This document shows, piece by piece, positions 19,170 to 54,184 of a stretch of DNA of 64,000 bases; positions within the stretch are counted from its first letter, which is position 1, and every line of letters begins with the position of its first letter. Origin of the DNA: Octopus vulgaris (lineage: Eukaryota); NCBI GenBank assembly GCA_951406725.2, contig OX597840.1:22072001-22136000 (forward strand). The letters are read 5' to 3'. Made by a program: the position numbers and the translations under genes. A model generated the notes under the pieces. It saw only the letters and a program-made list of their open reading frames with translations, was not told the DNA's origin and did not search any database.

Positions 19170-19365
19170 TTAGAATGTACACTAATTAACTAACTCATCA
19201 GTAGCTATTATTAAGTAAATGGAATGGTAGATACAATGTAGTAACGAACTCAACCAATGTTTCTTTAGACAAGATAAGGGAACTACTAAATGGTTGCATA
19301 ATGTGCTAGTAACAGCAACCAAATCATTCTTACACATCCTCATCACCATTTGATGTCCATGATGG

Positions 19366-22300: not shown

Positions 22301-25300
22301 GGCGTGGTGTGTTGCGATGTGGTGCCGTGTGGTGTGGTGCGATGTGATGTGGTGCGGTCTGGTGTGGTGCGGTGCGATGTGGTGCGGTGTGCTGTGGTGT
22401 GGTGGTGTGCAATGTGGTGTGGTGCGGTGTGATGTGGTGCGGTGTGGTGCGGTGTGGTGCGGTGTGATGTGGTGCGGTCTGGTGTGGTGCGATGTGGTGT
22501 GGTGCGATGTGATGTGGTGTGGTGCGGTGTGATGTGGTGCGGTGTGGTGCGATGTGGTGTGGTGTGATGTGGTGCGGTGTGGTGCGGTGTGATGTGGTGC
22601 GATGTGGTGTGGTGCGGTGTGGTGTGATGTGGTGCGGTGTGGTGCGATGTGATGCGGTGTGGTGTGATGTGGTGCTGTGATGTGGTGTGGTGCGGTGTGA
22701 TGTGGTGTGGTGCGATGTGGTGTGCTGTGGTGTGGTGCGGTGTTATGTGGTGCGGTGTGATGAGGTGTGATGCGGTGCGATGTGGTGTGGTGCGGTGTGG
22801 TGTTATGTGGTGCGGTGTGATGTGGTGCGGTGTGGTGTGGTGCGATGTGGTGTGATGTGGTGCGGTGTGATGTGGTGTGGTGTGATGTGGTGTGCTGCGG
22901 TGTGGTGCGATGTAGTGTGGTGTGGTGCAGTGTGGTGTTATGTGGTGCGGTGCGATGTGGTGTGGTGCGGTGTTATGTGGTGCGGTGTGATGTGGTGCGG
23001 TGTGGTGTGGTGCGATGTGATGCAGTGTGGTGTGGTGCGGTGTGATGTGGTGCGATGTGGTGTGATGTGGTGTGATGTGGTGTGGTGCGATGTGGTGTGA
23101 TGTGATGCGGTGTGGTGTGGTGCGGTGTTATATGGTGTGGTGTGTGAGGTGTGGTGTTTGTTGTTTGTGTGCTGTGATGTTGTGTGGTGTGGTGCGATGT
23201 GGTGAGGTGTGGTGTGGTACGATGTTGTGTGGTGTGATGTGGTGTGCTGTGGTGTGATGTGGTGTGGTGCGATGTGGGGCGGGGTGGTGTGATGTGATGT
23301 GTGATGAGGTGCGATGTGCTTTGGTGTGGTGTGGTGCGAGGTGGTGTGTTGTGGTGCGATGTGGTGTGGTGCGATGTGGTGTGGTGTGTTGCGATGTGGT
23401 GTGGTGTGATGTAGTGTATGTGGTGCGATGTGATGTGGTGCGATGTGGTGTGGTGCGATGTGGTGTGGTGTGATGTGGTGCGGTGTGGTGTGGTGTTATG
23501 TGTGGTGTGGTGTTTGTGTGGTGTAATGTTGTGTGGTGTGATGTGGTGCGGTGTGGTGTGGTGCGATGTGGTGCGGTGTAGTGTGCTGTGGTGCAATGTG
23601 GTGTGGTGCGGTGCGATGTGGTGCGGTGTGATGTGGTGTGATCCGATGTGGTGTGGTGTGGTGCGATGTGGTGTGGTGTGGTGTGGTGTGGTGCGATGTG
23701 GTGTGGTGCGATGTGGTGTGGTGCGATGTGGTGTGCTGTGGTGCAACGTGGTGTGTTGTGGTGTGATGTGGTGTGGTGCGATGTGGTGTGGTGCGGTGTG
23801 ATGTGGTGTGGGGTGCTGTGGTGCGGTGTGGTGCGATGTGGTGTGCTGTGGTGTGGTGCGGTGGTGTGGGTGGTGTGGTGTGGGTGGTGTGGTGTGGTGC
23901 AGTGTTATGTGGTGTGGTGTGATGCGGTGTGGTGCGATGTGGTGTGCTGTGGTGTGGTGCGGTATGCTGTGGTGCAGTGTGATGTGGTGCGATGTGGTGT
24001 GGTGCGATGTAGTGTGCTGTGGTGTGGTGCGGTGTTATGTGGTGCGGTGTGATGTGGTGCGGTGCGATGTGGTGTGATGCGGTGTTATGTTGTGCGGTGT
24101 GATGTGGTGCGGTGTGGTGCGGTGTGGTGCTGTGTGATGTGGTGCGATGTGGTGTGGTGCGGTGTTATGTTGTGCGGTGTGATGTGGTGCGGTGTGGTGC
24201 GATGTGGTGTGGTGCGATGTGGTGTGATGTGGTGTGGTGCGATGTGATGTGGTGCGATGTGGTGCGGTGTACTGTGTGTGGTGTGGTGTGTGAGGTGTGG
24301 TGTTTGGTGTGGTGCGGTGCAATGTGGTGTGCTGTGGTGCAACGTGGTGTGGTGTGGTGTGATGTGGTGTGGTGTGGTGTGATGTGATGTGGTGTGGGTG
24401 GTGTGGTGTGATGTGGTGCGATGTGGTGTGGTGCAGTGTTATGTGGTGCGGTGTGATGCGGTGTGGTGCGATGTGGTGTGATGTGGGGTGCTGTGGTGTG
24501 GTGTGGTGCGGTGTGGTGTGTGGTGCGGTGTGCTGTGGTGTTGTGTGATGTGGTGCGATGTGGTGTGGTGCAATGTAGTGTGCTGTGGTGTGGTGCGGTG
24601 TTATGTGGTGCGGTGTGATGTGGTGCGGTGCGATGTGGTGTGATGTGGTGTGGTGCTGTGTTATGTTGTGCGGTGTGGTGCGATGTGGTGCGGTGTGGTG
24701 CTGTGTGATGTGGTGTGATGTGGTGTGGTGCGGTGTGATGTGGTGCGGTGTGGTGCGATGTGGTGTGGTGCGATGTGGTGTGATGCGGTGCGATGTGGTG
24801 TTATGTGATGTGGTGCGATGTGGTGCGGTGTACTGTGTGTGGTGTGGTGTGTGAGGTGTGGTGTTTGGTGTGGTGCGGTGCGATGTGGTGTGATGTGGTG
24901 TGCTGCGGTGTGATGTGGTGTGGTGCGATGTGGTGTGATGCAATGTGGGGTGGTGTGTTGCGATGTGGTGTGCTGTGGTGTAGTGTGATGTGGTGTGCTG
25001 TAGTGTGATGTGTTGTAGTGTGATGTGGTGTGCTGTAGTGTGATGTGTTGTGATGTGGTGTGGTGCGATGTGGTGCAATGTGGTGTGGTGTGATGTAGTG
25101 TGTTGCGATGTGGTGTGCTGTGGTGTGATGTGGTTCGATGTGGATTGGTGTGGTGTGATGTGGTGTTCATTGTTTGTGTGGTGTGGTGCGATGTGGTGTG
25201 GTGTGATGTAGTGTGTGTGGTGCGAAGTGGTGTGGTGCGATGTGGTGTGGTGCGGTGTGATGTGGTGTGCTGTGGTGTGTGGTGCGGTGTGGTGTGGTGT

Positions 25301-28300
25301 GCTGTGGTGTGGTGTTATGTGGTGTGGTGCGGTGTGATGCGATGTGGTGTGCTGTGGTGTGGTGCGGTGTGCTGTGGTGCGGTGCGGTGTGATGTGGTGT
25401 GGTGTAGTGTGCTGTGGTGTGGTGCGGTGTTATGTGGTGCGGTGTGATGTGGTGCGGTGTGGTGTTATGTTGTGCGGTGTGATGTGGTGCAGTGTGGTGC
25501 GGTGTGATGTGGTGCGATGTGGTGTGGTGCGGTGTGGTGTGGTGCGATGTGGTGCGATGTGGTGTGGTGTACTGTGTGTGGTGTGGTGTGTGAGGTGTGG
25601 TGTTTGGTGTGTGGTGCGGTGCGATGTGGTGTTGTGTGATGTGGTGCGGTGCGATGTGGTGTTATGTTGTGGTGTGTGAGGTGTGGTGTTTGGTGTGGTG
25701 CGGTGCGATGTGGTGTTGTGTGATGTGGTGCGATGTTGTGTGATGTGGTGTTATGTTGTGCGGTGTGATGTGGTGCGGTGCAGTGTGCTGTGGTGTGGTG
25801 CGGTGTTATGTGGTGCGGTGTGATGTGGTGCGGTGCGATGTGGTGTTATGTTGTGCGGTGTGATGTGGTGCGGTGTGATGTGGTGCGATGTGGTGTGGTG
25901 CGGTGTGGTGTGGTGCGGTGCGGTGTGATGCGGTGCGATGTGGTGCAATGTGATGTGGTGCGATGTGGTGTGGTGTACTGTGTGTGGTGTGGTGTACTGT
26001 GTATGGTGTGGTGTGTGAGGTGTGGTGTTTGGTGTGGTGCGGTGCGATGTGGTGTTGTGTGATGTGGTGTGGTGTGATGTGGTGTGCTGCGGTGTGATGT
26101 GGTGTGGTGCGATGTGGTGTGATGCGATGTGGGGTTGGGTTGCGTGATGTGATGTGGTGCGATGTGCTTTGGTGTGGTGTGGTGCGAGATGGTGTGTTGT
26201 GGTGCGATGTGGTGTGGTGTGGTGCGATGAGGTGTGGTGCGATGTGGTGTGGTGTGTTGCGATGTGGTGTGCTGTGGTGTAGTGTGATGTGGTGTGCTGT
26301 AGTGTGATGTGTTGTGGTGCGATGTGGTGCAATGTGGTGTGGTGCAATGTGGTGTGTTGCGATGTGGTGTGCTGTGGTGTGATGTGGTTCGATTTGGATT
26401 GGTGTGGTGCGGTGTGGTGTGTAGTGTGGTGTGATGTGGTGTTCGTTGTTTGTGTGGTGAGATGTGGTGTCATGTGGTGTGGTGTGATGTAGTGTGTGTG
26501 TGGTGCGATGTGGTGTGGTGCGGTGTGATGTGGTGCGATGTGGTGTGGTGCGATGTGGTGTGGTGTGATGTGGTGCGGTGTGGTGCGGTGTTATTATGTG
26601 GTGTGGTGTTTGTTTGTGTGGTGTAATGTGTGGTGTGGTGCGATGTGGTGTGGTGGTGTGTGGTGCGATGTGGTGTGGTGCGATGTGGTGTCGTGTGGTG
26701 CGATGTGCTGTGGTGTGATGCGATGTGCCTTGGTGTGGTGTGGTGTGATGTGCTTTGGTGTGGTGTGGTGCGATGTGCTTTGGTGTGGTGCGAGGTGGTG
26801 TGTTGTGGTGCAATGTGGTGTGGTGCGATGTGATGTGGTGTGGTGCGATGTGGTGTGGTGTGTTGCGATGTGGTGTGCTGTGGTGTAATGCGGTGTGATC
26901 TGGTGTGGTGCAATATGTTGTGGTGCGATGTGGTGTGGTGTGGTGCGATGTGGTTTGGTGTGATGTGGTGTGGTGTGCTGTGTGTAGATTGTTGTGGTGT
27001 TGTGTAGTGTGGTGTGATGTGGTGTGTGTGGCGTTCGTTGTTTGTGTGGTGTGATGTGGTGAGCTGAGGTGTGGTGCGATGTTGTGTGGTGTGATGTGTG
27101 GTGTGATGTGGTGTGCTGTGGTGTGATGCGATGTGGTGTGATGCGATGTGATGTGGGGTGGCGTGGTGTGATGTGATATGTGGTGCGGTGCGATGTGCTT
27201 TGGTGTGGTGTGGTGCGAGGTGGTGTGTTGTGGTGCGATGTGGTGTGGTGTGGTGTGGTGTGTTGCGATGTGGTGTGCTGTGGTGTAGTGTGATGTGTGC
27301 TGTAGTGTGATGTGGTGTGGTGCGATGTGGTGCAATGTGGTGTGGTGCGATGTGGTGTGGTGTGTTGCGATGTGGTGCGCTGTGGTGTGGTGTGGTGTGA
27401 TGTGGTTCGATGTGGATTGGTGTGGTGCGGTGTGGTGTGTAGTGTGGTGATGTGGTGTTCGTTGTTTGTGTGGTGTGGTGCGATGTGGTGTCATGTGGTG
27501 TGGTGTGATGTAGTGTGTGTGGTGCGATGTGGTGTGGTGCGGTGTGATGTGGTGCGATGTGGTTTGGTGCGATGTGGTGTGGTGTGCTGTGTGTGGATTG
27601 TTGTGGTGTTGTATGGTGTGGTGTGTAGTGTGATGTGGTGTGTGTGGTGTTCGTTATTTGTGTGCTGTAGTGTGATGTGGTGTGGTGTGATGTGGTGCAA
27701 TGTGGTGTGGTGCGATGTGGTGTGGTGTGTTGCAATGTGGTGTAGTGCGGTGTGATCTGGTGTGGTGCAATATGTTGTGGTGCGATGTGGTGTGGTGTGG
27801 TGCGATGTGCTTTGGTGTGGTGCGATGTGGTGTGGTGTGATGTGGTACGATGTGGTTTGGTGCGATGTGGTGTGGTGTGCTGTGTGTGGATTGTTGTGGT
27901 GTTGTGTGGTGTGGTGTGTAGTGTGATGTGGTGTGTGTGGTGTTCGTTATTTGTGTGGTGTGGTGCGATGTGGTGTGGTGTGATGTGGTGTGGTGAGGTG
28001 TGGTGCGATGTGGTGTAATGTGTGTGGTGTGGTGTGGTGCGATGTGGTGAGGTGTGGTGTGATGTGATGTAATGTGGTGCAGTGTGATGTGGTGTGTTGC
28101 GATGTGGTGCGGTGTGGTGTGGTGCGGTGAGGTGCGATGTGGTGTGGTGTGTTGCGATGTGGTGTGGTGCGATGTGATGTGGTGCGATGTGGTGTGCTGT
28201 GGCGTGGTGGTGCGATGTGGTGCTGATGTGGTGCGATGTGGTGCAATGTGGTGTGGTGCGATGTGGTGCGGTGCGATGTGGTGCGGTGTGGTGCAGTGCG

Positions 28301-31300
28301 ATGTGGTGCAATGTGGTGTGTGCGATGTGGTGTGATGTGGTGCGATGTGGTGTGATGTGGTGTGATGTGGTGCGACACGGCGTGATGTGGTGTGGTGCGT
28401 TGTGGTGCGGTGTTGTGGTGCGGTGTGATGTGGTGCGGTGTGATGTGGTGCGATGTGGTGTGCTGTGGTGCACCACACCGCACCACAGCACACCACATCG
28501 CACATCACACCGCACCACACTGCATCGCACCACACCGCACCACATCACACCGCACCACATAACACCGCACCACAACACAGCACACCACATCGCACCACAC
28601 CACATTGCACCACACCACATCATGTGGTGCGGTGTGATGTGGTGCGGTGTGATGTGGTGTGCTGTGGTGTGGTGCGGTGTGGTGCGATGTGGTGTGGTGT
28701 GGTGCGGTGTGGTGTTATGTGGTGTGCTGTGGTGTGGTGTGCTGTGGTGTGGTGCGGTGCGATGTAGTGTGCTGTGGTGTGGTGCGGTGTGGTGTTATGT
28801 GGTGCGGTGTGATGTGGTGCGATATGGTGTTATGGGGTGCGGTGTGATGTGGTGCGGTGTGGTGTGGTGCGATGTGGTGCGATGTGGTGTGGTGCGATGT
28901 AGTGTGATGTGGGGCGGTGGGTGTACTGTGTGTGGGTGTACTGTGTGTGGTGTGGTGTGTGAGGTGTGGTGTTTGTTGTTTGTGTGCTGTGATGTTGTGT
29001 GGTGTGGTGCGATGTGGTGTGGTGAGGTGTGGTGCGATGTTGTGTGGTGTGATGTGGTGTGCTGCGGTGTGATGTGGTGTGGTGCGATGTGGTGTGATGC
29101 GATGTGATGTGGGGTGGTGTGATGTGTGATGTGGTGCGGTGCGATGTTCTTTGATGTGGTGTGGTGCGAGGTGGTGTGTTGTGGTGTGGTGTGGTGTGGT
29201 GCGATGTGGTGTGGTGTGGTGTGTGGTGATGTGGTGTGCTGTGGTGTAGTGTGATGTGGTGTGCTGTAGTGTGATGTGGTGTGGTGCGATGTGGTGTGAT
29301 GTGGTGTGGTGCGATGTGGTGTGATGTGGTGTGGTGCGTGTGTGCGTGTGGTGTTGCGATGTGGTGTGCTGTGGTGTGGTGTGATGTGGTTCGATGTGGA
29401 TTGGTGTGGTGCGGTGTGGTGTGTGTGGTGTGATGTGGTGTGGTGTGATGTGGTGCGGTGTGTGTGTGGTGTTATGTGGTGTAGTGTGTGGTGTGGTGTT
29501 TGTTTGTGTGGTGTAATGTTGTGTGGTGTGATGTGGCGCGGTGTGGTGTGGTGTGGTGCGATGTGGTGTGGTGCAATGTGGTGTGGTGCGGTGTGATGTG
29601 GTGCGATGTGGTGTGGTGCGATGTGGTGCGATGTGATGTGGTGTGATGCAGTGCGATGTGGTGTGGTGCGATGTGGTGCGGTGTTATTTGGTGTACTGTG
29701 TGTGGTGTGGTGTGTGAGGTGTGGTGTTTGTTGTTTGTGTGCTGTGATGTTTGTGTGGTGTGGTGCTATGTGATGTGGTGAGGTGTGGTGTGGTGCGATG
29801 TTGTTTGGTGTGATGTGGTGTGCTGCGGTGTGATGTGGTGTGATGCGATGTGTGTGGGGTGGGATGGCGTGGTGTGATGTGATGTGTGATGTGGTGCGGT
29901 GCGATGTGCCCTGGTGTGGTGCGAGGTGGTGTGTTGTGGTGCGATGTGGTGTGGTGTGATGTGGTGTGGTGCGATGTGGTGTGGTGTGTTGCGATGTGGT
30001 GTGCTGTGGTGTAGTGTGATGTGGTGTGCTGTAGTGTGATGTGGTGTGGTGCGATGTGGTGTGATGTGGTGTGGTGTGGTTCGATGTGGATTGGTGTGGT
30101 GTGGTGTGGTGTGATGTTCGTTGTTTGTGTGGTGTGGTGCGATGTGGTGTGGTGTTATGTAGTGTGTGTGGTGCGATGTGGTGTGGTGCGGTGTGATGTG
30201 GTGAGATGTGGTGTGGTGCGATGTGGTGTGGTGTTATGTGGTGTAGTGTGTGGTGCGGTGTTTGTTTGTGTGGTGTAATGTTGTGTGGTGTGGTGCGATG
30301 TGGTGTGGTGAGGTGTGGTGCGATGTGGTGTGGTGCGATGTGGTGTGGTGCGATGTGGTGTGCTGTGGTGTGATGCGATGTGCCTTGGTGTGGTGTGGTG
30401 TGATGTGCTTTGGTGTGGTGTGGTGCGATGTGCTTTGGTGTGGTGCGAGGTGGTGTCTTGTGGTGCAATGTGGTGTGGTGCGATGTGATGTGGTGTGGTG
30501 CGATGTGGTGTGGTGTGTTGCGATGTGGTGTGCTGTGGTGTAGTGCGGTGTGATCTGGTGTGGTGCAATATGTTGTGGTGCGATGTGGTGTGGTGTGATG
30601 TGGTGCGATGTGGTTTGGTGCGATGTGGTGTGGTGTGCTGTGTGTGGATTGTTGTGGTGTTGTGTGGTGTGGTGTGTAGTGTGGTGTGATGTGGTGTGTG
30701 TGGTGTTCGTTGTTTGTGTGGTGTGATGTGGTGTGGTGCGATGTGGTGTGGTGTGATGTGGTGTGGTGAGGTGTGGTGCGGTGCGATGTGGTGTGTGTGG
30801 TGTGGTGCGATGTGGTGTGGTGTGATGTGGTGAGGTGCGGTCTGGTGAGGTGTGATGTGGTGCGATGTGGTGTGGTGAGGTGTGGTGTGGTGTGATGTGG
30901 TGTGTGTGGTGTTCGTTGTTTGTGTGGTGTGATGTGGTGTGGTGCGATGTGGTGTGGTGTGATGTGGTGTGGTGCGATGTGGTGTGATGTGGTGTGTGTG
31001 GTGTGGTGCGATGTGGTGTGGTGTGATGTGGTGAGGTGCGGTCTGGTCTGGTGATGTGGTGCGATGTGGTGTGGTGTGGTGCGATGTGGTGTGGTGAGGT
31101 GTGGTGTGATGTGGTGTGATGTGATGTGGTGCGATGTGGTGTGGTGTGGGGTGGTGCGATGTTGTGTGGTGTGCTGTGTATAGTGTGGTGTTTGTGTGGT
31201 GCAATGTGGTGTGATGTGGTGTGGTGAGGTGTGATGTGGTGTGGTGCGATGTGGTGAGGTGCGATGTGGTGAGGTGTGATGTGGTGCGATGTGGTGTGGT

Positions 31301-32710
31301 GAGGTGTGATGTGGTGTGGTGAGGTGTGATGTGGTGAGGTGTGATGTGGTTAGGTGTGATGTGGTGAGGTGTGATGTGGTGTGGTGCGATGTGGTGTGGT
31401 GAGGTGTGATGTGGTAAGGTGTGGTGAGGTGTGGTGTGGTGTTGTGCGATGTGGTGTGGTGCGGTGTGGTGTGGTGTTGTGCGATGTGGTGTGTGTGGTG
31501 CGATGTGGTGTGATGTGGTGTTGTGCGATGTGGTGTGTGTGGTGCGATGTGGTGTGGTGTTGTGCGATGTGGTGTGTGTGGTGTGGTGCGATGTGGTGTG
31601 GTGTGGTGCAATGTGGTGTGGTGTGATGTGGTTTGTGTGTGTGGTGTGGTGTGTGTGGTGTGTAGTGTGCGTGGTGTGGTGTATGTGGTGAAGTGTGTGG
31701 TGTGGGTGGTGTGTGTGGTGTGGTGCAATGTGGTATAATGTGGTGTGGTGTGATGTGGTGCGATGTGGTGTGGTGTGTGTGTTGTGGTGTGGTATGATGT
31801 GGTGTGGTATGATGTGGTGTGGTGTGTGTGTTGTGGTGTTATGTTGGTGTGGTGTTGTGTTATGTGGTGTGGTGTGATGTGATGTGGTGTGTGTGTTGTG
31901 GTGTGATGTGATGTGGTGTGGTGTGATGTGGTGCGATGTGGTGTGGTATAATGTGGTGTGGGTGGTGTGATGTGGGGTGGGTGGTGCGATGTGGTGTGGT
32001 ATAATGTGGTGTGGTGTGGGTGGTACGATGTGGTGTGGTATAATGTGGTGTGGTGTGGGTGGTGTGATGTGGTTTGTGTGGTGTGGTGTGTGTGTGTGTG
32101 GTGTATGTGTGTGTGGTGTGTGTGGTGTGGTTTGTGTGGTGTGATGTGTTGTGGGTGGTGTGTGTGGTTTGGTGTGTGTGGTGTATGTGGTGTGGTGTGG
32201 GTGTAGTGTGTGTGGTGTGGTGTATGTGGTGAAGTGTGTGATGTGTGGTGTGGGTGGTGTGGTTTGTGTGGTGTGGTGTGGGTGTGGTGCGGTGTGTGTG
32301 GTGTGATGCGGTGTGTGTGGTGTGATGTGGTGTGTGTGTGGTGTGATGTGGTGTGTGTGTGGTGTGATGTGTGTAGTGTGTGGTGTGGTGTTGTGTATGG
32401 TGTGGTGTGATGTGGTGTAGTGTGATGTGGTGTCATGTGGTGTGATGTGGTGTGGTGTGTGTATTGTGGTGTAGTATGATGTGGTGTGGTGTGTGTGGTG
32501 TGATGTGGTGTGTGTGGTTCAGTGTGGTGTGGGGTGTGTGGTGTGGTGTGTGTGGTTCAGTGTGGTGTGTGTGGTATGGTGTGGTGTGAGTGGTGTGGTG
32601 TAATGTGGTGTGTGTGTGGTTTGATGTGTGTGGTGTGGCGTGATGTGGTGTGGGTGTGGTGTGATGTGGTGTGTGTGGTGTGGTGTGGGTGTAGGTGTGG
32701 TGTAGGTGTG
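19366..32710. repeat. ~13.3 kb pentanucleotide satellite (TGTGG with TGCGG, TGCGA and TGTGA variants) with higher-order structure
   Basis: Continuous 5-bp periodicity and extreme G+T strand bias; the landmark gtgtgaggtgtggtgtttg recurs; the distal ~1 kb is more decayed. Confidence 0.98.
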
Positions 32711-33432
32711 GGCATCTTTCTGTCGGTAGTCGTACCCTATATTGCGGTTTCCTCATTCCCCTGTAACATAGCAGCTTAGCAAAAAGAACTGATACAAAAA
32801 GCACCAGGCTTTAAAAAACTTAGTACTGAGGTCAAGTTGTCTGACCAAAACCTTTCAAATTTGTGCCCCGACATGGCTGCTCTCCAACGATAAGACAAGT
32901 TAAAGGTAGGAAGGTAATCCCTTTTCATAATGGAAGTTGAGATTTCAGTGATATTTAGCTGTTATTTCTAACAAATTGAACGCCTGCAGAGAGGCTCCTT
33001 CATTGGCACTTCTAAATAAACAGAGATGTTGTTTTCTCTGGTGTACAGCTGCAGTATTAATGTAAGCAGTTTAGGAAGAACAGTGTGCATTGGTGGTAAA
33101 GATATGGGAGTGGGGAGATGTGCAGCAAAGGGGAGACGGAGAGAGAGACATATAAATGGATGGAGAGAGAGAGAAAGAAAGAGACAGGGAGAGAAAGAGA
33201 CAGGGAGAATGAAGGAGAGTTTAGTTGTCTGTGAGGTGAATGGAAGAGGATGTTAGAGAAGTCGGCAGGTGAAAGCTGTCATTTTTGCTTTCACAGATTC
33301 AACGAAGACTTCCATTTTTGTTGCCAATGCAGTCATTAAATACACACACACACCTATATATATACACACACACACACATACATACACACAGACACATGCA
33401 CAAGCACACACATATATGTGTGTGTGTTTGTG

Positions 33433-37470: not shown

Positions 37471-37473
<3 letters not shown>

Positions 37474-38090
37474 CAACAAGGATATCCAGAGGTAATGCAG
37501 TACGATCGATTCATGTAAATCAAGATGTTAAGAGGGTCGGCCACTAGCAGACCATTGATAATTGTCAGCTAACATCTTGATTTAAGTTTTCCTTTACCAA
37601 ATCTCATGATATTGCTTCAAATAAATCTTGATAGTTTTTTATGACTATACCCACTATGATTTCTGTCGATTCCCTCAGCTCTTACCCTAACAGACACTGC
37701 CCCTTGTTCTATCGGCCTTAGATATACAAGGATTTGATAAAACTAGTCTATAAATTAAAACTGACCCCATAAAACAGTGACAAGCATAATCTGTAACAAG
37801 TTTTTCTTCCTGATACCTTAGTAGCTTAAGTGAAGGCAGCATGTTCTTTGTCTATCTCCTTAACTTCTTGGAGATTTTAGGTAAAATTATACTAATGTGT
37901 CCATCTGTTTTAATTTAATTAAATTCTATGTCTTTTTGCAACTGAAAATTGATATGATGGTTGCATTGTTCAATTAAATGGAGTTGCGTGAAACGATCGT
38001 ACTGCATTACCTCTGGATATCCTGTTGCTTATTTTGATTTTAATCACCTTATTTTGAAATTGTATGGATAATACCATACTAAATGCTGGT
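37471..38090 (+). mobile_element. Penelope-like pLTR relic with ~50-bp inverted terminus and a degenerate hammerhead (37937-38006)
   Basis: 37471-37521 is an inverted copy of 37981-38030; motif tgcaa-CTGAAAA...GAAA-CGATCG-TA-ctgca; begins at a (TA)n tract. Confidence 0.6.
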
Positions 38091-41657: not shown

Positions 41658-42234
41658 TTTTTCCAATTCCTCAAAACTTCAGTCTTTACTAGGTTTATTT
41701 TACAAGCCTCTTGGTTCTAATTATGGCTTCAAGGTTTGGAATTTCTCCACTGAATCTTTGAGAGATTCACTTATGATAATTTAGTTATTGATGTACAGGA
41801 GTTTCCATTGGCAACCACTGAAATTCCTGTTTTATGGTCTGGAGGACTGTAATAAACAGAAGGGTGTTTATAACTGAAACCTGATATATTTCAGCCTAGA
41901 TGCTAATCTCATTCTGATGGCACCTCTGAACATGGCTTGTGTGTGTGTGTGTGTTTGTGCACATGCATGCATGTGGTGGGTGGGAGGCATGTTTATCTGT
42001 GTGTAAATGTAAAAAATATACGTACATATTGGATTGGATTTGAATGCTCCATCTTGGTTGACTGCTTTTCGTCCTTGTGGGAACAATAAAATATGTACCA
42101 GTTGGGTGCTGGGGTCAATGCAATTGACTATCCACACTCCCATAAAACTACTGGCCTTGTACCAAAGTTTGAAACCAGTATGCATGTGTGTGTGTGTGTG
42201 TGTGTACATATGTGTGCATGCATGTGTACGTGTG

Positions 42235-43124
42235 TATTACACAAAGTATTTAATAAAATCTTCTCACATTGAGCACCATGTTTGGTTTCCATGGCTCATC
42301 AGAGGAAAATAGAGAAGTTTCAAGCATTTTGTCACAATATGTCACACCAATTCCTTCCTCAAGATGCAAAGCATTCTAAAATTGTTTGTCACAAATAGAT
42401 ATTTATATAAAAGAATTCCTAAATAAACTTTCTGTCTCTCTCTTTTCCAACAAAGTGTATTTCTCGTGTTTTCAGCTTACAGTAAAATGACCATTCATTT
42501 TGCCTCGGTCCTCACTGTTTCATGCTGATATGACAGCTTTATAGAATGACAGCATGATTAAAAATTCTCTTTTCAATATTTTCTCAATCAGTTATGAAAG
42601 CAAAACATTGTGTCCATTGATAAGAGATGTTATTAGATAAATAAGCTGTTATATGTCTAGTAATGCAGGCAGTAGCGCTTGCAATATATCTACATATACA
42701 ACCACACACACACACACACGTTTAAATAGCTCTTTTATTCAATGTAGTGTTTACAACTTTTCCACAGTAATAAACACTCTGTGTGAAGCAACAATGTATC
42801 ACAAAGCCACAACATTGATTACATTCTGATACAGAATTTCAGTATTTATCAGCCCGTTCCATGGGAAGTTGAGCACTTTACAAATGTGAATTGCTTGCAG
42901 TTACTGATACAGGCAAACTTGTAAACACATGTTTTGTCTATATACTTATCAATGAAACATATTTTTCATCACTTTGGATTATGACAAAACAACAATTCAT
43001 TTTGCCTTGTCCTGAAAGATTTCTACTGAGATGGCTGCCATATTTATTCTAGACATAAACAACAGGCTCTATATAAAAATAGGGGGCTCAATGCAAATAT
43101 ATATATATATATACACACACATAT

Positions 43125-43350: not shown

Positions 43351-43473
43351 GAAGGAGTTGGTGTGACATATTGTGATAAAATGCTTGAAACTTCTCTATT
43401 TTCCTCTGATGAGCCATAGAAACCAAACTTGGTGCTCAATGTGAGAAGATTTTATTAAATACTTTGTGTAATA
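42235..43473. repeat. ~123-bp inverted repeat pair (42235-42358 / 43351-43473) enclosing ~1 kb
   Basis: tattacacaaagtatttaataaaatcttctcacattgagcacc... is the reverse complement of ...ggtgctcaatgtgagaagattttattaaatactttgtgtaata with few mismatches. Confidence 0.9.
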
Positions 43474-43521
43474 TATATATATTTGCCTAATAGTGGTTTT
43501 ATCTCTAATTTAATTTAATTT

Positions 43522-43998: not shown

Positions 43999-44548
43999 TT
44001 GAAAGTTGCAGAGAGAGTCATAGCCCAACTAATCATGGAGAGAATTGGTCTAGATGTGATGCAGTTTGGCTTTGTGCCAGGTAGAAGCACCACTTATGCT
44101 ATATTTCTGGTAAGGCAACTACAGGAGAAATACCTAGCCAACGCTAAACCTCTGTACCTGGCTTTTGCTGACTTGGAGAAAGCTTTTGACAGAGTCCCCC
44201 GATCCGTTATCTGGTGATCAGTGTGGAAACTAGGGATAGACAAGTGGTTGGTAAGAGCTGTACAAGCCTTGTACAGGGATGCTACCAGTAAGGTGAGGGT
44301 GGGCAACAAGTACAGTAAAGAATTCAGGGTACAAGTAGAGATTCATCAAGGATCAGTGCTCATCCCCTTTTTGTTCATCATAGTCCTCCAGGTAATAACA
44401 GAGGAATTCAAGACAGGATGCCCCTGGAGCTCCTCTATGCTGATGACCTTGCTCTTATACCTGTTACTACCAGAACTAGAGAAGGAGTCCCAGGTATGGA
44501 AACAAGGTCTAGAATCAAAGGGACTTAGAGTTAACCTAGCAAAAACTT
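43999..44548 (+). mobile_element. RTE LINE RT-domain fragment
   Basis: QFGFVPGRSTTYAIF..AFADLEKAFDRVPR..HQGSVLIP..; YADD present in a shifted frame. Confidence 0.92.
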
Positions 44549-45510
44549 GGAGTACTTCCAAGTTCAGTTCCTGTAACTTGAGTAGCATTCTTTGTGCAAC
44601 ATGTGGTCAAGCATTGTCTTGCAAGAGAACTGGCCTGTCTCTATTGACCAATCTTGGTCGTTTAATTGCAAGTTCACTCATCATTTCATCCAGTTGGTTG
44701 TTGTATACATCCGCTGTAACTGACTTACCAGGTCTCATGAAGCTGTAGGGGATGACATCAGTGTTGGACCACCAAACTGACACCATTTGCTTTTTTTGGT
44801 GAATATTCTTTGTTTTGGCACTTCATTTCTATCTAACCATTGTGCAGAATACTTGCCATTGTTGAAAAGAATCCATTTTCCATCACATGTAACAATATGA
44901 TGCAAAAATGTTTCGCTTTTATGCCGAGACAGCAAAGAACAGCAAGTTTCAAGACAACATGTCCTTTGATGCTCGTTCAATTTGTGTGGTACCCGCTTGT
45001 CCAGCTTCTTTACCTTGCTAATTTGTTTCAGGTGGTCCAATACAGTTGGAATCGATGCATCAAACTTCGCTGCTAACTCATGCATAGTTTGAGATGTATC
45101 TGCTTCTGCTATAGTTTCCAGCTCATCATTATCCACCTCAGCTCTACCATGGGACTGATTTTCAAGAGTAAAGTCACCAGACGAGAACTTCTCAAACCAT
45201 CAACGTACAGTCTACTCATTCGGCGCATTTTCCCCAAACACTCCATTGATGTTTTGAGCTGTCTGGGATGCATTGGTTCCACAACAGAACTCATTCATAA
45301 AGAACACAAATGTTTTATCTATCTATGGGTTCACAAAAATTGATTTACAAGAGAAAATTCTCAATGTAATCAGACACCATGAATTGTATTGTGAAAAGTG
45401 ATGATGTAACCCTTCAATGTTGTAAAACAAAGAATTGTCAGGATAAAACATTAGAGTTAATGACTGTCAAACTTGGTGCATAAGAAAATCGGACACTTCA
45501 TTCTTAATGA

Positions 45511-45516
<6 letters not shown>
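44549..45516 (-). mobile_element. 3'-truncated mariner transposase pseudogene
   Basis: DNDELETIAEAD..KKLDKRVPHKL (WVPHEL motif)..IVTCDGKWI (TGDEKW motif); HTH relic upstream; probable TIR at about 45485-45516 abutting (TA)n. Confidence 0.88.
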
Positions 45517-45540
<24 letters not shown>

Positions 45541-45542
<2 letters not shown>

Positions 45543-45776
45543 GGTCTACCTCTCAACTTCTGTTCTTTCAACATGTGATCTCTTGAGCACCACCAGCAAA
45601 AATATTTTTTTCCTCTGTCTTCCCTTCTTGGGATCTTTCCTTCTCCTTGTTTCCGACGAAGAGCTCCGCTCGAAACGTTAAACCCTCCTTCCCTTCTTTC
45701 CTGAGCGTCAAATAATACTTTAATTGTTCCATGTCCTCGCGTTGGTGTGTTTTTTTCTGTGTTTTCTTGTTTGGAT

Positions 45777-45780
<4 letters not shown>
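45541..45780 (+). mobile_element. Solo Penelope-like pLTR fragment between two (TA)n tracts
   Basis: Contains the minimal hammerhead at 45649-45683 followed by a T-rich tail; flanked by TA arrays on both sides. Confidence 0.6.
45649..45683 (+). ncRNA. Minimal type I hammerhead ribozyme motif (U4C variant)
   Basis: gttt-CCGACGA-a-gagc(tcc)gctc-GAAA-CG-TT-aaac; stems I and II pair perfectly; AACGTT palindrome. Confidence 0.65.
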
Positions 45781-45850
<70 letters not shown>

Positions 45851-46487
45851 TGTATGTGTAAATATATATATATGTGTTATTGTAACATCATTTTATACAG
45901 AACAAGAGAGAGAAAGCGAGAGAAAGAGAGAGAATTAGTGAAGTTTTCTAAAATATTTAAATATTTCAACAACACTTCCATTAACGGATTAGTCTGTTGA
46001 TTAATGGCGTCCTTCCTGTTTTGTTCATTGCTCAAGATTTCAGATTTGATAACACACAGTTGTGACATAAGCCAGCAACCCAGTGAGAACAGGTAGAAAT
46101 GTGAATTTATATTCCAGCTGGTCTAGAATCAGCAACTTTCCATTAGTATTAGATCGCTGTAGGTGTTCTATTTCCTATTCCAGGAATGGTATTTACATCT
46201 GCCAGTCAATTAAGTTCCATTCGACTGAAATTGGAAAATGTATAGGTTTTTAATTCAGTATTTTAAGCAACTCTTCACCCAGTGCCTAAAATTTGCATCA
46301 TATTTTGTTCAAATATGTTATATATATATATATATATATATATTAAATTAGAGATAAAACCACTATTAGGCAAATCAAACAGTGAAAAACAAACCAAAAC
46401 ACAGAAATAAAATTAATATAATATACAAAATATATAAAATATAAAATTCAAAAATTATTCATTTATACTTATAAATTATACTTATAA

Positions 46488-46539
<52 letters not shown>

Positions 46540-46690
46540 ATTTTTATTTTTATCATTATTTTTAATCTAATTTTTATTTTTTAAATTTTTTTTATTTTTT
46601 ATTATATATTTATTTAATTTTTTAAATTTTTATTTTAATATATATAACTATCAAAAAGTATTAAAAAATTTAATATAAGATAATAAGTAA

Positions 46691-46790
46691 AACCACTACG
46701 ATCGTTTCATGCCCATAACCTAATTCGAATAACAATAATTTAAATTCAATTAATAATTCGAATTATGGTTATAGTCAATCTTCAGGTTAA
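46691..46790 (-). ncRNA. Type I hammerhead ribozyme motif, left arm
   Basis: Reverse complement of the motif at 49008-49106. Confidence 0.6.
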
Positions 46791-49007
46791 TGATAATATT
46801 TAAATAAATAATCAAATATATTTAAACAATATTTTTTTTAAGAAATAAATACAATAATATTTTTTCTTATAAAAAACTCTATTATCAAACTAGAAACTTT
46901 AACGATTATGATTATGTCATACAATCGATTATAATGTTAAATATTAATTTTTAAGTATTAATTTTTAAGGTAAGAATAGATAGAAAATGTATTTATCTAT
47001 TCAGATATAATATGGCTTTAAAAAAAACATAATAAACCCACAAATAATCTAATCTCAGTTATAGTCAATATCTAATTACCTATATAATTAAAAAAATAAA
47101 ATCACTAATCATATTTTATTAAATTCAATCTCAAGTCAAACAACTATATGATATTTGAACAATAACCAAACCATCAATGAACACATACAAATGTATATAA
47201 ATATAAGAATTTATATGAGTATGGGAGTTGGGATCTGGGATTGTCTCTATCAATGAGTGTATATGCGCGTGTGGTGGGGACCTGTTGGATTAATTGTTCA
47301 TTGTTGCTTATTGGAGGATTGGGGATGAGGGAGCTAGTTGTGGACGAGCAGGCGGGCTATCTTGTTGGAACTCTAGCTGGTTAACGATCCATGTATCTCA
47401 TTGGCTGGTTGGTAACTTGCAGGGGCCGTGTAGTTGGGAACTGGAATGAAATGGTAAAGTGCTTGATGAAGTGATCAATCCATGGTTGTGTGGTATCCGA
47501 TAGGTGCTACTAAAATGTTTGTCGGTGGAAGGAGTACTGCTGCCAATTGTCAGTTGAAGGGGGAAATGTGTGGGTTGTAGTAACAATTATAAAATGTTTG
47601 AGGTGGCTATCAACAGTTGTGGTTGTTAAAGACTGGAATTTGAGCTGTCAATGCATGTATGTGCATGAAGCCTGGCTTTGGAGGGCTCGTGTAACTGTTG
47701 GCGATCAATGTGTCTCTTTGGCTGGGTGGGGTCTTGTGGATGGACGTGGAGTTGGAATCTAATAATTGGGTGGAGGGGGCTGCGATAGCTGGATCATTGC
47801 ATGGCAATCAGTATTTGTGTGAAGTGCAGAATTGTACAATGGGACTTTTTGAAGTATTTAAATTTTAAAATTTGGAAATCTTAGATGTGAATATATACTT
47901 ATCTTTGCAAAGATAAGTATATGTTTGTATTTGGGATTTTTAGATTTTGAAATTTAAATGTTTTGGTAGGACTTATGGTATAATTTTGTATAGGTACTGA
48001 TTGTTGTGCAGTGATTTAGTTGTCGTGGTTTTTTCTATTTAATTATTGGATTTTGGATCTACGTTTGTTCGTGGGACTTTGCTTGGCCAAGGAGATGTAT
48101 TGATCGTTAACAGTTGTACGAGTTTTTTAAAGTTGGGTTTCATGTGTATGCATGTATTGGTGGCTTGGATTTTGGTCTTTAATAGTTGTAATTTTTGATA
48201 GTTATTTTAGGTATTTTATAATTGTTGTTATAACTTGTATGTTTCTTTTTTCAATTGAAGATTGGTAGTGGTATTTTTTCCATTGATAAGTGTGTTAGTG
48301 GTATTTGTTGGATACTGTATAGCTGCAGATTGATTATTTCATTAAGTGTTTTGTTGTTTCATTTTAGTTCTTAACTATACGGTTTTTGTAGGTTATTAGT
48401 TGGCCAACGAGATGTATGGATCGTTAATTAGTTGTGAAGTTCTTTTGGAATGGTTTGTTTGTTTGTTTACAGTCGGCTTTTTCATCTTTAATCTTTTAAT
48501 GTATTTATAAGTGGTAAAGAATAATTAATTTATTAGGTCTTTGTTATACGTGCATATATACTTGTTGATGGAGATAGTTTTGGATCTTAATTCTTATATT
48601 TATATACACTTGTATGAGTTCATTGATGGTTTGGTTATTGTTCAAATATTATATAGTTATTTGACTTGAAATTGAATTTAATAATGATTAGTGATTTTTT
48701 TTTTTTGTTAAATATTTAGGTAATTAGATATTGACTATAACTGAGATTAGATTATTTGTGGGTTTATTATGTTTTTTAAAGCCATATTATATCTGAATAG
48801 ATAAATACATTTTCTATCTATTCTTACCTTAAAAATTAATACTTAAAAATTAATATTTAACATTATAATTGATTGTATGACATAATCATAATCGTTAAAG
48901 TTTCTAGTTTGATAATAGAGTTTTTTATAAGAAAAATTATTATTTTATTTATTTCTTTAAAAAAATATTGTTTAAATATATTTGATTATTTATTTAAATA
49001 TTATCAT

Positions 49008-49106
49008 TAACCTGAAGATTGACTATAACCATAATTCGAATTATTAATTGAATTTAAATTATTGTTATTCGAATTAGGTTATGGGCATGAAACGATCGTA
49101 GTGGTT
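49008..49106 (+). ncRNA. Type I hammerhead ribozyme motif with 70-nt stem-loop II, right arm
   Basis: Canonical CTGAAGA (49012-49018); stem II tataaccataattcgaat..attcgaattaggttatg; GAAA (49089-49092); palindromic CGATCG; TA with predicted cut after 49100; stem I is weak. Confidence 0.6.
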
Positions 49107-49225
49107 TTACTTATTATCTTATATTAAACTTTTTAATACTTTTTGATAGTTATATATATTAATAATAAAAATTTTTTAAATTAAACAAATATATAATTAA
49201 AAAAATAAAAGATAATAAAAATAAA

Positions 49226-49271
<46 letters not shown>

Positions 49272-49855
49272 CTATAGGTATAATTTATAAGTATAAATTA
49301 ATAATTAAAAAATTTTTTTAAATTTTAACTTTAAATTTTGAATTTTATATATTTTGTGTATTATATTAATTAATTTTATTTCTATGTTTTGGTTTATGTT
49401 TTTCACTGTTTTGATTTGCCTAATAGTGGTTTTATCTCTAATTTAATATATATATATTTATACTGTAAAATTAGATTTAATCCTAAATCTAATTTTTCCC
49501 TGTAAATTTGGATTTACTCCCTAATATTATTATCATATATATATATATATATACATATATATAGGCACAGTGAAGGCTTGTGACATAGGGTATTTAGCTC
49601 ATGGTTGTAAGTTTCATGAGTTCAATACCTGGCAAGACACTTTATTTCACCTTTCTCCAGTCCACTCAGCTGGCAAAAATGAGTAGCACCTGCATTTCAA
49701 ATGACAGCCTTTTCACATTTTTAGAACTATGTGAAGGGTATGTGTGTCTATGGAGTACTCAGCCACTTGCACATTAATTTCACAAGCAGGCTGTTCCGTT
49801 GATCGAATCAACTGGAAACCTCGTCATCGTAACCAACAGAGTGCCAGTTCTATAG

Positions 49856-50258
49856 GCACTGTCATGGCTGTGTGGTAGGAAGCTTGCTTCCCAATCACAT
49901 GATTCCAGGTTCAGTTCAATTGTGTGGCACCTTGGGCAAGTGTCTTCTACTAAAGCCTCAGGCCAACCAAAGCCTTGTGAGTAGAATTGGTGGATGGAAA
50001 CTGAAAGAAGCCTGTTGTATATATTTATGGTAGTGTGTGTGTCTTGTGTCTGTGTTTGTTCCCTACCATTGCTTAACAACCAGTGTTGGTGTGTTTACAT
50101 CCCTGAAACTTAGTGGTCCAGCAAAAAGCAACCGATAGAATAAATACAAGCCTTTAAAAGAAAAATAAGCACTGGCATTGATTTATTTGACTAAAAATTC
50201 TTCAAAGTTGTGCCCCAGCATGGCCACAGTATAATGACTGAAACAAATAAAAGAAAAA
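49856..50258 (+). mobile_element. Full-length tRNA-derived SINE (main family)
   Basis: ggctgtgtggtaggaagc A box, ggttcagttc B box, ccttgggcaagtg body and actgaaacaaataaaagaaaaag tail. Confidence 0.8.
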
Positions 50259-50265
50259 GGATATA

Positions 50266-50648
50266 TATTCTTTTACTTGTTTCAGTTATCAGACGGAGGC
50301 CATGCTGGGGTGCCGCCTTGAAAAATTTTTTTAGTTAGATATATCAACTCCAGTACTTATCCTATCAGTCTCTTTTGCTGAACTGCTAAGTTACGGAGAC
50401 ATCAACATATCAGCACCAGTTGTCAAGGAGTGGTGGGGGATAAACACAGACACAAATACACACACACACACACACATACATATATACCGTGAGCTTCTTT
50501 CAGTTTCCATCTACCAAATCCTCTGACAAGGCTTTGGTCAGCCTGGGGCTATAGTAGAAGACACCTACCCAAGGTGCCATGCAGTGGGACTGAACCCAAA
50601 ACCATGTGGTTAGGAAGCAAGCTTCTTATGACACAGCCATGCCTGTGC
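50266..50648 (-). mobile_element. Full-length SINE of the same family, tail-to-tail with the preceding copy
   Basis: Reverse complement of the 49856-50258 family. Confidence 0.8.
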
Positions 50649-53064: not shown

Positions 53065-53827
53065 AGTCTACTTACCTGACATCTATCAATCTTACTTCTG
53101 CTTAACTTGTTACTCCAACCACACTTTTACCATTTCTCTCTCTCCCTAATCTTGTTTACCTTTCTCCCATCTCCGCACAATTTCTATTTCTGATTCATTT
53201 TACTTCTGCCTAGATTTGCCTAACTTTTACAGACAGATTCATTCATTTGTCTGTCTATATTCATACAAACCTGTAAAGAAGAAAAAATTCACTTGGAAAT
53301 TAAAGAAAACAACTTAAAGAAAAAGAAGAAAAAAACACAAAAGCAAAGCAGACTAAGATTCCATTAATCTACGAATTTTGTATGACTGTCGTCTCAGCAC
53401 AAAATATATATATATATATCATCATCATCATATATATAGTATACCATTACAATTTATACACACACACACACACATAAATATATATAATACACACACACAT
53501 ATATAACATTAAACTAGTTTCTCTAAAAAGTTTTCTTATTAGCTTTGTGGATTTTTTCTGTTCTCTATTTTAGCTTACATGACAAATATTGATTTTCATA
53601 AACTTTCTTTTCTCTACTTTAAAAGATTGACTATTTAGTCACACATACAATTTCTTTGTCTTTCTCTTTATCTCTCTCTTTCTCTTTGTGAATACCCACC
53701 ATGCCTACACACACTCTCTCTTTCTACACACACATCCATAACATAGATGTATATATGTAATTTTCTCATCAGTAACAACATCAAAATATTCAAACTGGAA
53801 TCCCAAAATAGATTTCTCACCACCGCC

Positions 53828-54184
53828 ATGGATCACAGCAACGAAATATCTTTAGCATCGCAGATATTCAGGTCAAACAATTTCCATCACCATGAGCGTT
53901 TACACTCACACCATTTCATTTATGGCAATAAGAAGCTGCTGTACAACATTAAAATAGCCATTGTGGTCACCCTGGGAGTCATCGTTGTGCTTGGCTGTAT
54001 CATATACATTGTATTGCAGTGTCGACGGAAGACACGTGTCACGTTCTTGCTTCCGCGACACCGGGACTCTTTCTCAGATCAACATAACCTGATAGACAGT
54101 GTTGAAACCACAGAGACTCTGCTCAATGGAGAGCTTGGCATCAAAGAACGGGATGATGAACAGTGCCGAGAATTCTATGTTTGA
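53828..54184 (+). CDS. Small single-pass membrane protein (118 aa from the Kozak ATG, or terminal exon of a longer gene) with C-terminal PDZ-ligand-like REFYV
   Basis: Optimal Kozak context accgccATGg; hydrophobic IAIVVTLGVIVVLGCIIYIVL followed by CRRK; non-repetitive, GC-richer island; acceptor ttttctcatcag| at 53772 with the frame open through it; AATAAA at 54450. Confidence 0.8.
   Translation: MDHSNEISLASQIFRSNNFHHHERLHSHHFIYGNKKLLYNIKIAIVVTLGVIVVLGCIIYIVLQCRRKTRVTFLLPRHRDSFSDQHNLIDSVETTETLLNGELGIKERDDEQCREFYV

Follow-up and report, generated by a model that had tools for sequence, protein, structure and literature searches.

A-to-G changes confined to the hairpin of a Penelope-like insertion in Octopus vulgaris, a likely signature of ADAR hyper-editing fixed in DNA

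A 64,000-nucleotide stretch of the Octopus vulgaris genome (assembly GCA_951406725.2, contig OX597840.1, positions 22,072,001 to 22,136,000 of the forward strand; hereafter the window) contains at 46342-49447 a 3.1-kb element with inverted arms, and its middle part raises the question considered here: how did DNA that folds into a long hairpin far more stably on one strand than on the other come to lie inside an insertion of a Penelope-like element (PLE)? An earlier note on this DNA had described the element as two inverted arms around a spacer and missed its most unusual feature, an A-to-G scar. The pattern in the inner part is likely an ADAR hyper-editing signature fixed in DNA, ADAR being the enzyme to which the pattern points.

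The region taken for a spacer, 47212-48606, is the G.U-rich inner portion of the same palindrome, and the entire 3.1 kb is one hairpin. Self-BLAST of this region returned an inverted repeat of 62.6% identity over 1,054 columns, centred at 47907/47908 without a loop. The inner portion consists of the following parts, X1, X4 and X10 being three DNA runs whose contigs were compared with the locus.

47212-47907, + strand: inner left arm, antisense to the element, in which 171 of 325 inferred ancestral A are now G (single-copy depth over 47212-47796 in three runs)
47893-47922, no strand: loop-less centre, a perfect 30-nt palindrome with 0 of 12 A changed (spanned by an X4 contig, 47212-48378)
47908-48606, + strand: inner right arm, sense, in which 72 of 224 inferred ancestral A are now G (A in other family copies)

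Mismatches in the inner half (47212-48606) are almost entirely of one kind. Its 689 aligned columns comprise 429 Watson-Crick pairs, 243 G.U pairs, 6 A.C pairs and 11 transversions (p 7e-64), the scoring of inner and outer pairs having been symmetric for all transitions. The ~0.87-kb outer arms, 46342-47211 and 48589-49447, are reverse complements as previously described, pairing at 797 of 825 aligned columns and differing by further indels where complexity is low, and show no bias, their mismatches being 6 G.U, 9 A.C and 13 transversions. The changes span 47212 to about 48582 and affect both arms of the duplex. The inner part has a fold energy of -783 kcal/mol on the + strand and -278 on the - strand, so that the two strands, for both of which a folding transcript had earlier been proposed, are not equivalent, and the central 700 nt on the + strand form a single unbranched stem (z -36.6). 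Mismatches other than G.U are equally frequent in the two parts (17 of 689 inner and 22 of 825 outer columns), indicating that at the time of the changes the inner palindrome was near perfect and similar in age to the insertion. A single exhaustive round of editing fits this better than slow accumulation. The inner half was not similar to the outer arm above chance (score 189, shuffle maximum 194), and no other G.U-biased hairpin, microsatellites apart, was present among the top 40 matches per strand in the window.

A G.U pair on the + strand can arise through either A-to-G or C-to-T change. Four tests of direction favour A-to-G, three of them clearly and the fourth modestly. Base composition of the + strand differs between outer and inner parts only in A, which decreases, and G, which increases, in both arms. 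In the left arm A falls from 0.465 to 0.234 and G rises from 0.068 to 0.32, with C at 0.115 in both parts and T at 0.351 and 0.33; the corresponding right-arm values are 0.347 to 0.23 for A, 0.116 to 0.217 for G, 0.069 and 0.072 for C, and 0.469 and 0.481 for T. Other copies of the family, represented by contigs of the three DNA runs over 47212-49160, carry A in place of the G of the locus at 43, 44 and 40 places in X1, X4 and X10, respectively, and C in place of its T at only 7, 9 and 9. From 48057 onward, where other copies map, the right arm has 53 G.U guanines and 141 G.U thymines. Among the 19 G-to-A differences of the right arm found in the 40 of 150 variant rows listed, a count that leaves out a left-arm row at 47563, 16 coincide with a G.U column, 1 with a G-C column and 2 with a gap. 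The third test is provided by the junction of the two parts, at which an unedited segment adjoins its own A-to-G twin.

47192-47231, no strand: junction, an unedited segment of ~18-20 nt (47192-47211) followed by its edited twin (47212-47231), both corresponding to 48587-48606 (joint of 47212 with 48589 on opposite strands, runs X1, X4 and X10)

The fourth comes from an internal direct repeat of the inner arm (47372-47423 and 47689-47740, offset ~317 bp), which indicates that the family carries an old tandem duplication; in a loose alignment, 62 polarised sites support A-to-G and 20 oppose it.

These results bear directly on a cytidine-based origin, in which APOBEC/AID-like deamination of single-stranded cDNA, or strand-biased DNA mutation, would have acted on a GC-rich palindrome. 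C-to-T change on the + strand would yield the same pair types, and under that model a 5' C context appears favoured at 98 of 109 sites. However, this 5' C effect is expected from the 3' G lean described below and from runs on the other strand, the ancestor would have to be 55% GC beside outer arms of 18% GC, and other copies have A, not C. APOBEC-type editing was, moreover, reported absent in a screen of 19 invertebrate genomes (PMC4866542), and we consider this origin highly implausible. CpG decay was rejected, as the C-to-T model gives no clear 3' G excess.

The sequence context of the changed adenosines resembles that of ADAR substrates. In total, 243 of 549 inferred ancestral adenosines are changed (44%; 171/325 left, 72/224 right). 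Sorted by 5' neighbour, the changed fraction is 126/239 after U, 104/211 after A, 6/38 after C and 2/46 after G, an order that is unchanged when invariant neighbours alone are used. Avoidance of a 5' G is reported as a rule common to ADARs (PMC5625713, PMC8586724), and octopus, together with frog, gave the strongest hyper-editing signal in the survey of Porath 2017 (PMC5625713). The 15 bp next to the apex contain 12 adenosines, none of them changed, which may reflect poor access near a loop, and no dependence between edits was seen across UA:UA steps (p 0.84).

Gradual change under selection would need to produce the same picture. In such a scheme A-to-G and C-to-T substitutions would have built a G.U-rich gene resembling those of hairpin RNAs (hpRNAs), from which small RNAs directed at the high-copy family would arise. 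Nearly all changes do keep + strand pairing, to the extent seen in the unbranched stem, and the locus is common to three organism labels, as set out below. Selection for wobble would also use C-to-T, whereas C and T content is unchanged and T-to-C differences from other copies are few; it does not predict 5' G avoidance; and stepwise change cannot yield 243 differences where the background is about 2.5%. As an origin this explanation is largely refuted and, in our judgement, very unlikely, although later co-option of the hairpin may have occurred.

Several observations weigh against ADAR hyper-editing followed by retrotransposition, the origin that we prefer. Sorted by 3' neighbour, changed fractions are 34/58 before G, 27/53 before C, 96/211 before A and 79/212 before U, a weak, G-leaning preference without A enrichment, whereas Porath 2017 reports downstream A enrichment in invertebrates and a lower G preference in octopus (PMC5625713). 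The arms differ in the fraction changed (53% versus 32%), an asymmetry for which we have no explanation. In the reliable core of the internal direct repeat the support for A-to-G is only modest, at 7 sites versus 2, and the variant comparison covers 40 of 150 rows. In addition, the scheme supposes a parent palindrome with a + strand transcript, ADAR as the enzyme, a PLE protein that carried out reverse transcription in the germline, and priming from two ends, and neither an unedited parent palindrome nor an autonomous partner was found, no whole-genome search having been made.

Is the locus real, and has the edited unit spread? Depth over the edited left arm is flat and single-copy in all three runs (73, 50 and 6.65 in X1, X4 and X10, respectively). 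Summed contig depth rises from single-copy values of 48-73 in X1 and about 50 in X4 to 64,000-85,000 and 160,000-212,000, respectively, near the hammerhead motif of the right arm. Over the runs the difference is roughly 500- to 4,000-fold, although summed depth is not copy number and mapping accounts for part of its drop within the edited region. The mapping threshold was 80% likeness, below which differently edited copies would fall. In the right outer arm summed depth climbs steeply toward 49160, and no near-fixed G-to-A difference lies past 48582 among the variant rows listed. A single-copy inner arm joined to a high-copy 3' end indicates that the 3' end derives from a large 5'-truncated family and that the edited unit has not spread. 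The joint of 47212 with 48589 is present in X1, X4 and X10, which represent three organism labels.

An assembly or sequencing artefact of the hairpin has to be considered, as palindromes and PLE insertions are described as difficult to assemble (PMC8557442). X1 contigs, however, match 47212-48647 with 0 other letters, and an X4 contig, under a different organism label, spans 47212-48378, crossing the centre and differing at 13 of 1,156 letters. X1 may derive from the sample that was assembled; the organism, sample and study codes of X4 and X10 are different. With the edited arm single-copy and the joint found in three organism labels, the locus is neither a misassembly nor an amplified subfamily, and an artefact is scarcely credible. 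Contigs of a further run, X11, match 47427-47850 and 48134-48388 with 0 other letters; X11 is only guessed to be RNA and was used neither for nor against expression.

The carrier of the edited hairpin can be recognised from its outer parts and flanks, which are as follows.

46320-46343, no strand: (AT)12 target microsatellite, left flank (sequence)
46342-47211, - strand: left outer arm, a copy of the element's 3' end that is 5'-truncated, inverted and unedited, with its 3' end leftward (797/825 columns versus 48589-49447)
48607-49447, + strand: right outer arm, unedited, the 3' end of a Penelope-like family that is high-copy and non-coding (depth, composition)
49446-49455, no strand: (AT)5, right flank (sequence)
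43481-43514, + strand: solo 34-nt fragment from the terminus of this family, following (TA)n, 100% identical to the element's end (sequence; adjoins the third inverted pair described below)

The element is a single insertion of a Hydra-like PLE, a non-coding derivative or 3' fragment and not an intact PLE. The TA flanks noted previously proved to be (AT)12 on the left and (AT)5 on the right, and these, with a match to the hammerhead motif of the Hydra clade, support the proposed Penelope-like origin and (TA)n targeting. An inverted 5'-truncated copy at the 5' end, a (TA)n site and a high-copy family with 5' truncation are all found here. Craig et al. 2021 report that PLEs usually have such an inverted copy at the 5' end (PMC8557442), so that the fold-back architecture itself is ordinary. 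As had been noted, the element lacks an open reading frame (ORF), all stop-free frames within it being shorter than 85 aa. The de-edited inner half contains 20-27 stops per frame and likewise has no ORF, and a reverse transcriptase (RT) of telomerase-like type with a C-terminal GIY-YIG domain was found neither in the element nor in the de-edited inner half. A DNA transposon with long terminal inverted repeats was rejected, depth being 3'-biased rather than two-ended and a solo 34-nt end existing.

The Hydra clade of Craig et al. 2021 (PMC8557442) provides the closest comparison. Its reported members share the (TA)n targets, a sense hammerhead near the 3' end and an inverted 5' copy, as in Penelope-13_HM, and the clade occurs in O. 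bimaculoides (Hydra-1_Obim). The 1.5 kb of the present element differs from these in having no RT/GIY-YIG ORF. The hammerhead pattern given for the clade, CTGA(T/A)GAT-TGCC...GGCA-TGAA-AC (File S2), is matched with one mismatch, with a stem II arm of 70 nt here and stems of 3-7 bp in the Hydra rows. The motif is unlike that of Hydra-1_oBim, pointing to another family. The earlier proposal of a distinct, retrozyme-like 3.1-kb element is not supported, since the inner left arm is single-copy and only the 3' part is high-copy. Non-LTR (long terminal repeat) retrozymes, described by Li et al. (bioRxiv 10.64898/2026.07.22.740005), are similarly non-coding, PLE-derived and equipped with a type I hammerhead, but are defined by direct tandem repeats, whereas here the motifs lie on opposite strands of a one-off insertion; with one motif per strand, there are no two or more direct tandem hammerhead units.

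We consider it very probable that a hairpin transcript was edited by ADAR and then retrotransposed. A recent insertion, head to head, from a Hydra-like PLE family without coding capacity would have given a near-perfect palindrome with 0.7-kb arms, and its + strand transcript would have consisted of a 0.7-kb duplex (47212-48606) and a single-stranded 3' tail with the hammerhead. About 44% of the duplex adenosines, in both arms, became G and the tail was spared, presumably through deamination by ADAR. A PLE RT/GIY-YIG protein would then have copied inosine as G into a (TA)n site in the germline, and the lack of an ORF even after de-editing suggests that it acted in trans. At the other end an inverted, unedited 5'-truncated copy of the tail is joined, stopping about 18 nt inside the base of the hairpin; priming from both target ends with stalling at the hairpin has about an even chance of being the cause. 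The edited copy would have undergone no further amplification. The purified anole PLE protein is reported to need no homology with the cut DNA for starting reverse transcription, and to cut and extend both target strands; by analogy, this two-strand extension suggests a possible route to the outward-facing ends and to the stop of the second copy.

The same biochemistry would permit an origin without a parent palindrome, in which sense and antisense transcripts annealed in trans and were edited by ADAR, and an RT jump from one strand's 5' end to the other's paired 3' end made the loop-less centre in the course of this insertion. The absence of a loop, the failure to see a parent palindrome and an enzyme that needs no homology are all in keeping with this scheme. 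Inner mismatches other than G.U are, however, no higher than outer ones, whereas family copies differ far more from the locus, requiring that both strands came from one locus or from near-identical copies. In addition, depth at the centre is 4-7 times the single-copy level in X1 and X4, compatible with a few related copies there. Annealing in trans therefore seems to us quite unlikely, and editing of a self-paired transcript is retained.

The hammerhead motifs, which the earlier note had placed at the centre of its interpretation, appear to be passengers, their cleavage being predicted from sequence.

49012-49100, + strand: hammerhead motif, right copy, with a predicted cut after 49100 (sequence)
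46697-46785, - strand: hammerhead motif, left copy, Hydra-clade-like, with a 70-nt stem II (sequence)

The outward-reading arrangement CTGAAGA-[70 nt]-GAAA-CGATCG-TA is indeed present in both arms, at 49012-49100 (+) and 46785-46697 (-), as is the palindromic loop III, ACGAUCGU, two copies of which pair in a cofold. The core elements CUGANGA, GAAA and UH are present as CUGAAGA, GAAA and GUA, and the 13-nt 3' half of the motif occurs 4 times in the window at no more than 1 mismatch versus 0.04 expected. No variant rows fall inside the motif among the 40 of 150 listed. A preferential identity of the motif between the arms, claimed previously, is not significant: the clean run is 170 nt, and with 16 difference events in 577 columns the probability of a longest run of at least 168 is about 0.11. 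With Rfam, 45500-50300 gave no hammerhead at E<=10, and no family reached gathering score anywhere in the window. The G10.1-C11.1 pair with a bulge after A9 described by Cervera and de la Pena 2014 is replaced by a U.U at the base of stem II, because the motif follows the T...T flank pattern of the Hydra clade. Helix I has 2 bp followed by a mismatch in place of 4-6 bp; Cervera and de la Pena 2014 give a helix I of 2 bp for D. virilis Penelope. Hammerhead cleavage of the anole PLE is described as protein-assisted and dispensable for insertion.

Four short motifs of the element and the core motif, in DNA and RNA spelling, had no match in the Craig 2021 supplement. The long-stem motif matched 15 metagenome loci, which were rejected as chance, most being 40-60% GC without a hammerhead-like fold; the best-looking, L012, lies among prokaryote-type ORFs and was likewise treated as chance. 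Separately, the 11 nt at the predicted cut site, 49099-49109, are present again at 49425-49435, near the end of the element.

Deaminase scars in reverse-transcribed RNAs have precedents. An avian retroviral RNA inverted repeat in which ADAR changed nearly 50% of A (Hajjar and Linial 1995; Felder et al. 1994; via PMC12925331, PMC8586724) shares the A-to-G cluster in an inverted repeat; the present case differs in its invertebrate germline setting, PLE carrier, 0.7-kb duplex and occurrence of the insertion in several organism labels. The APOBEC 'DNA editing' that Knisbacher and Levanon report in vertebrate LTR retrotransposons, and in none of 19 invertebrate genomes (PMC4866542), is likewise a strand-biased process, in which the hypermutated intermediate of a retroelement became fixed in the genome and consensus gives the polarity. 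In contrast, that process edits cDNA and leaves G-to-A on the sense strand, whereas the changes here are A-to-G, confined to the duplex and avoid a 5' G. A germline-fixed ADAR scar in an invertebrate or a PLE was not found in the literature searched, in which coverage of subscription papers was incomplete.

If the proposed origin is correct, the locus is an unusually clean record of the editing of one RNA molecule, with 243 sites, an internal unedited control and an ancestral state that is known, and this record entered germline DNA in the animals most noted for editing. Ordinarily, edits made in RNA are not passed on to offspring. ADAR would then be active in the cells where PLEs move, and an inosine-rich hairpin RNA would still be retrotransposable, with the start and end of its duplex recorded. 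Arms of this type fall below the identity usual in repeat masking and resemble unique 'spacer' DNA; G.U-biased palindromes with 5' G avoidance would thus offer a simple genome-wide search for the feedback of editing into genomes. More tentatively, and with the balance somewhat against it, germline ADAR hyper-editing in octopus combined with Penelope-type RT could be a recurring route of RNA edits into heritable DNA. It would turn unstable palindromes into stable loci (62% arm complementarity in DNA here) that fold as kilobase G.U hairpins on one strand, leaving many datable records of ancestral ADAR specificity, some of them co-opted as sources of hairpin RNA against their own family.

Other features of the window include further inverted pairs. 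The same GAAACGATCGTA motif is carried by a second pair, facing outward and following a (TA)n run, at 37473-38021; its arms are alike only in the last ~45 nt, the stem II sequences differ and both cores are damaged or truncated, as if each end had been copied from a different RNA. A third inverted pair, of another family, lies at 42227-42357 and 43351-43481, with ~130 bp arms about 95% alike and an outward-directed, degenerate CTGATGA...GAAA core. Other families have left minimal hammerhead-like remnants at 45655-45685 (+) and 62190 (-). Remnants at 44735-45199 (-) and 44218-44748 (+) resemble a mariner-type transposase and a LINE reverse transcriptase, respectively. Upstream exons of the gene at 53747-54184 were searched for and not found. 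The segment 53747-54184 (+) is an exon for an octopus protein that is uncharacterised, and one hydrophobic stretch is predicted in it; at 53831-54172 the exon is identical over 114 aa to UniRef A0A0L8GPA4_OCTBM, which points to Octopus bimaculoides or a near relative as the host. From ~19200 to 33000 the window is occupied by about 13 kb of G/T-rich satellite with a 5-nt-based period, in which a block near 28500-28620 is inverted.

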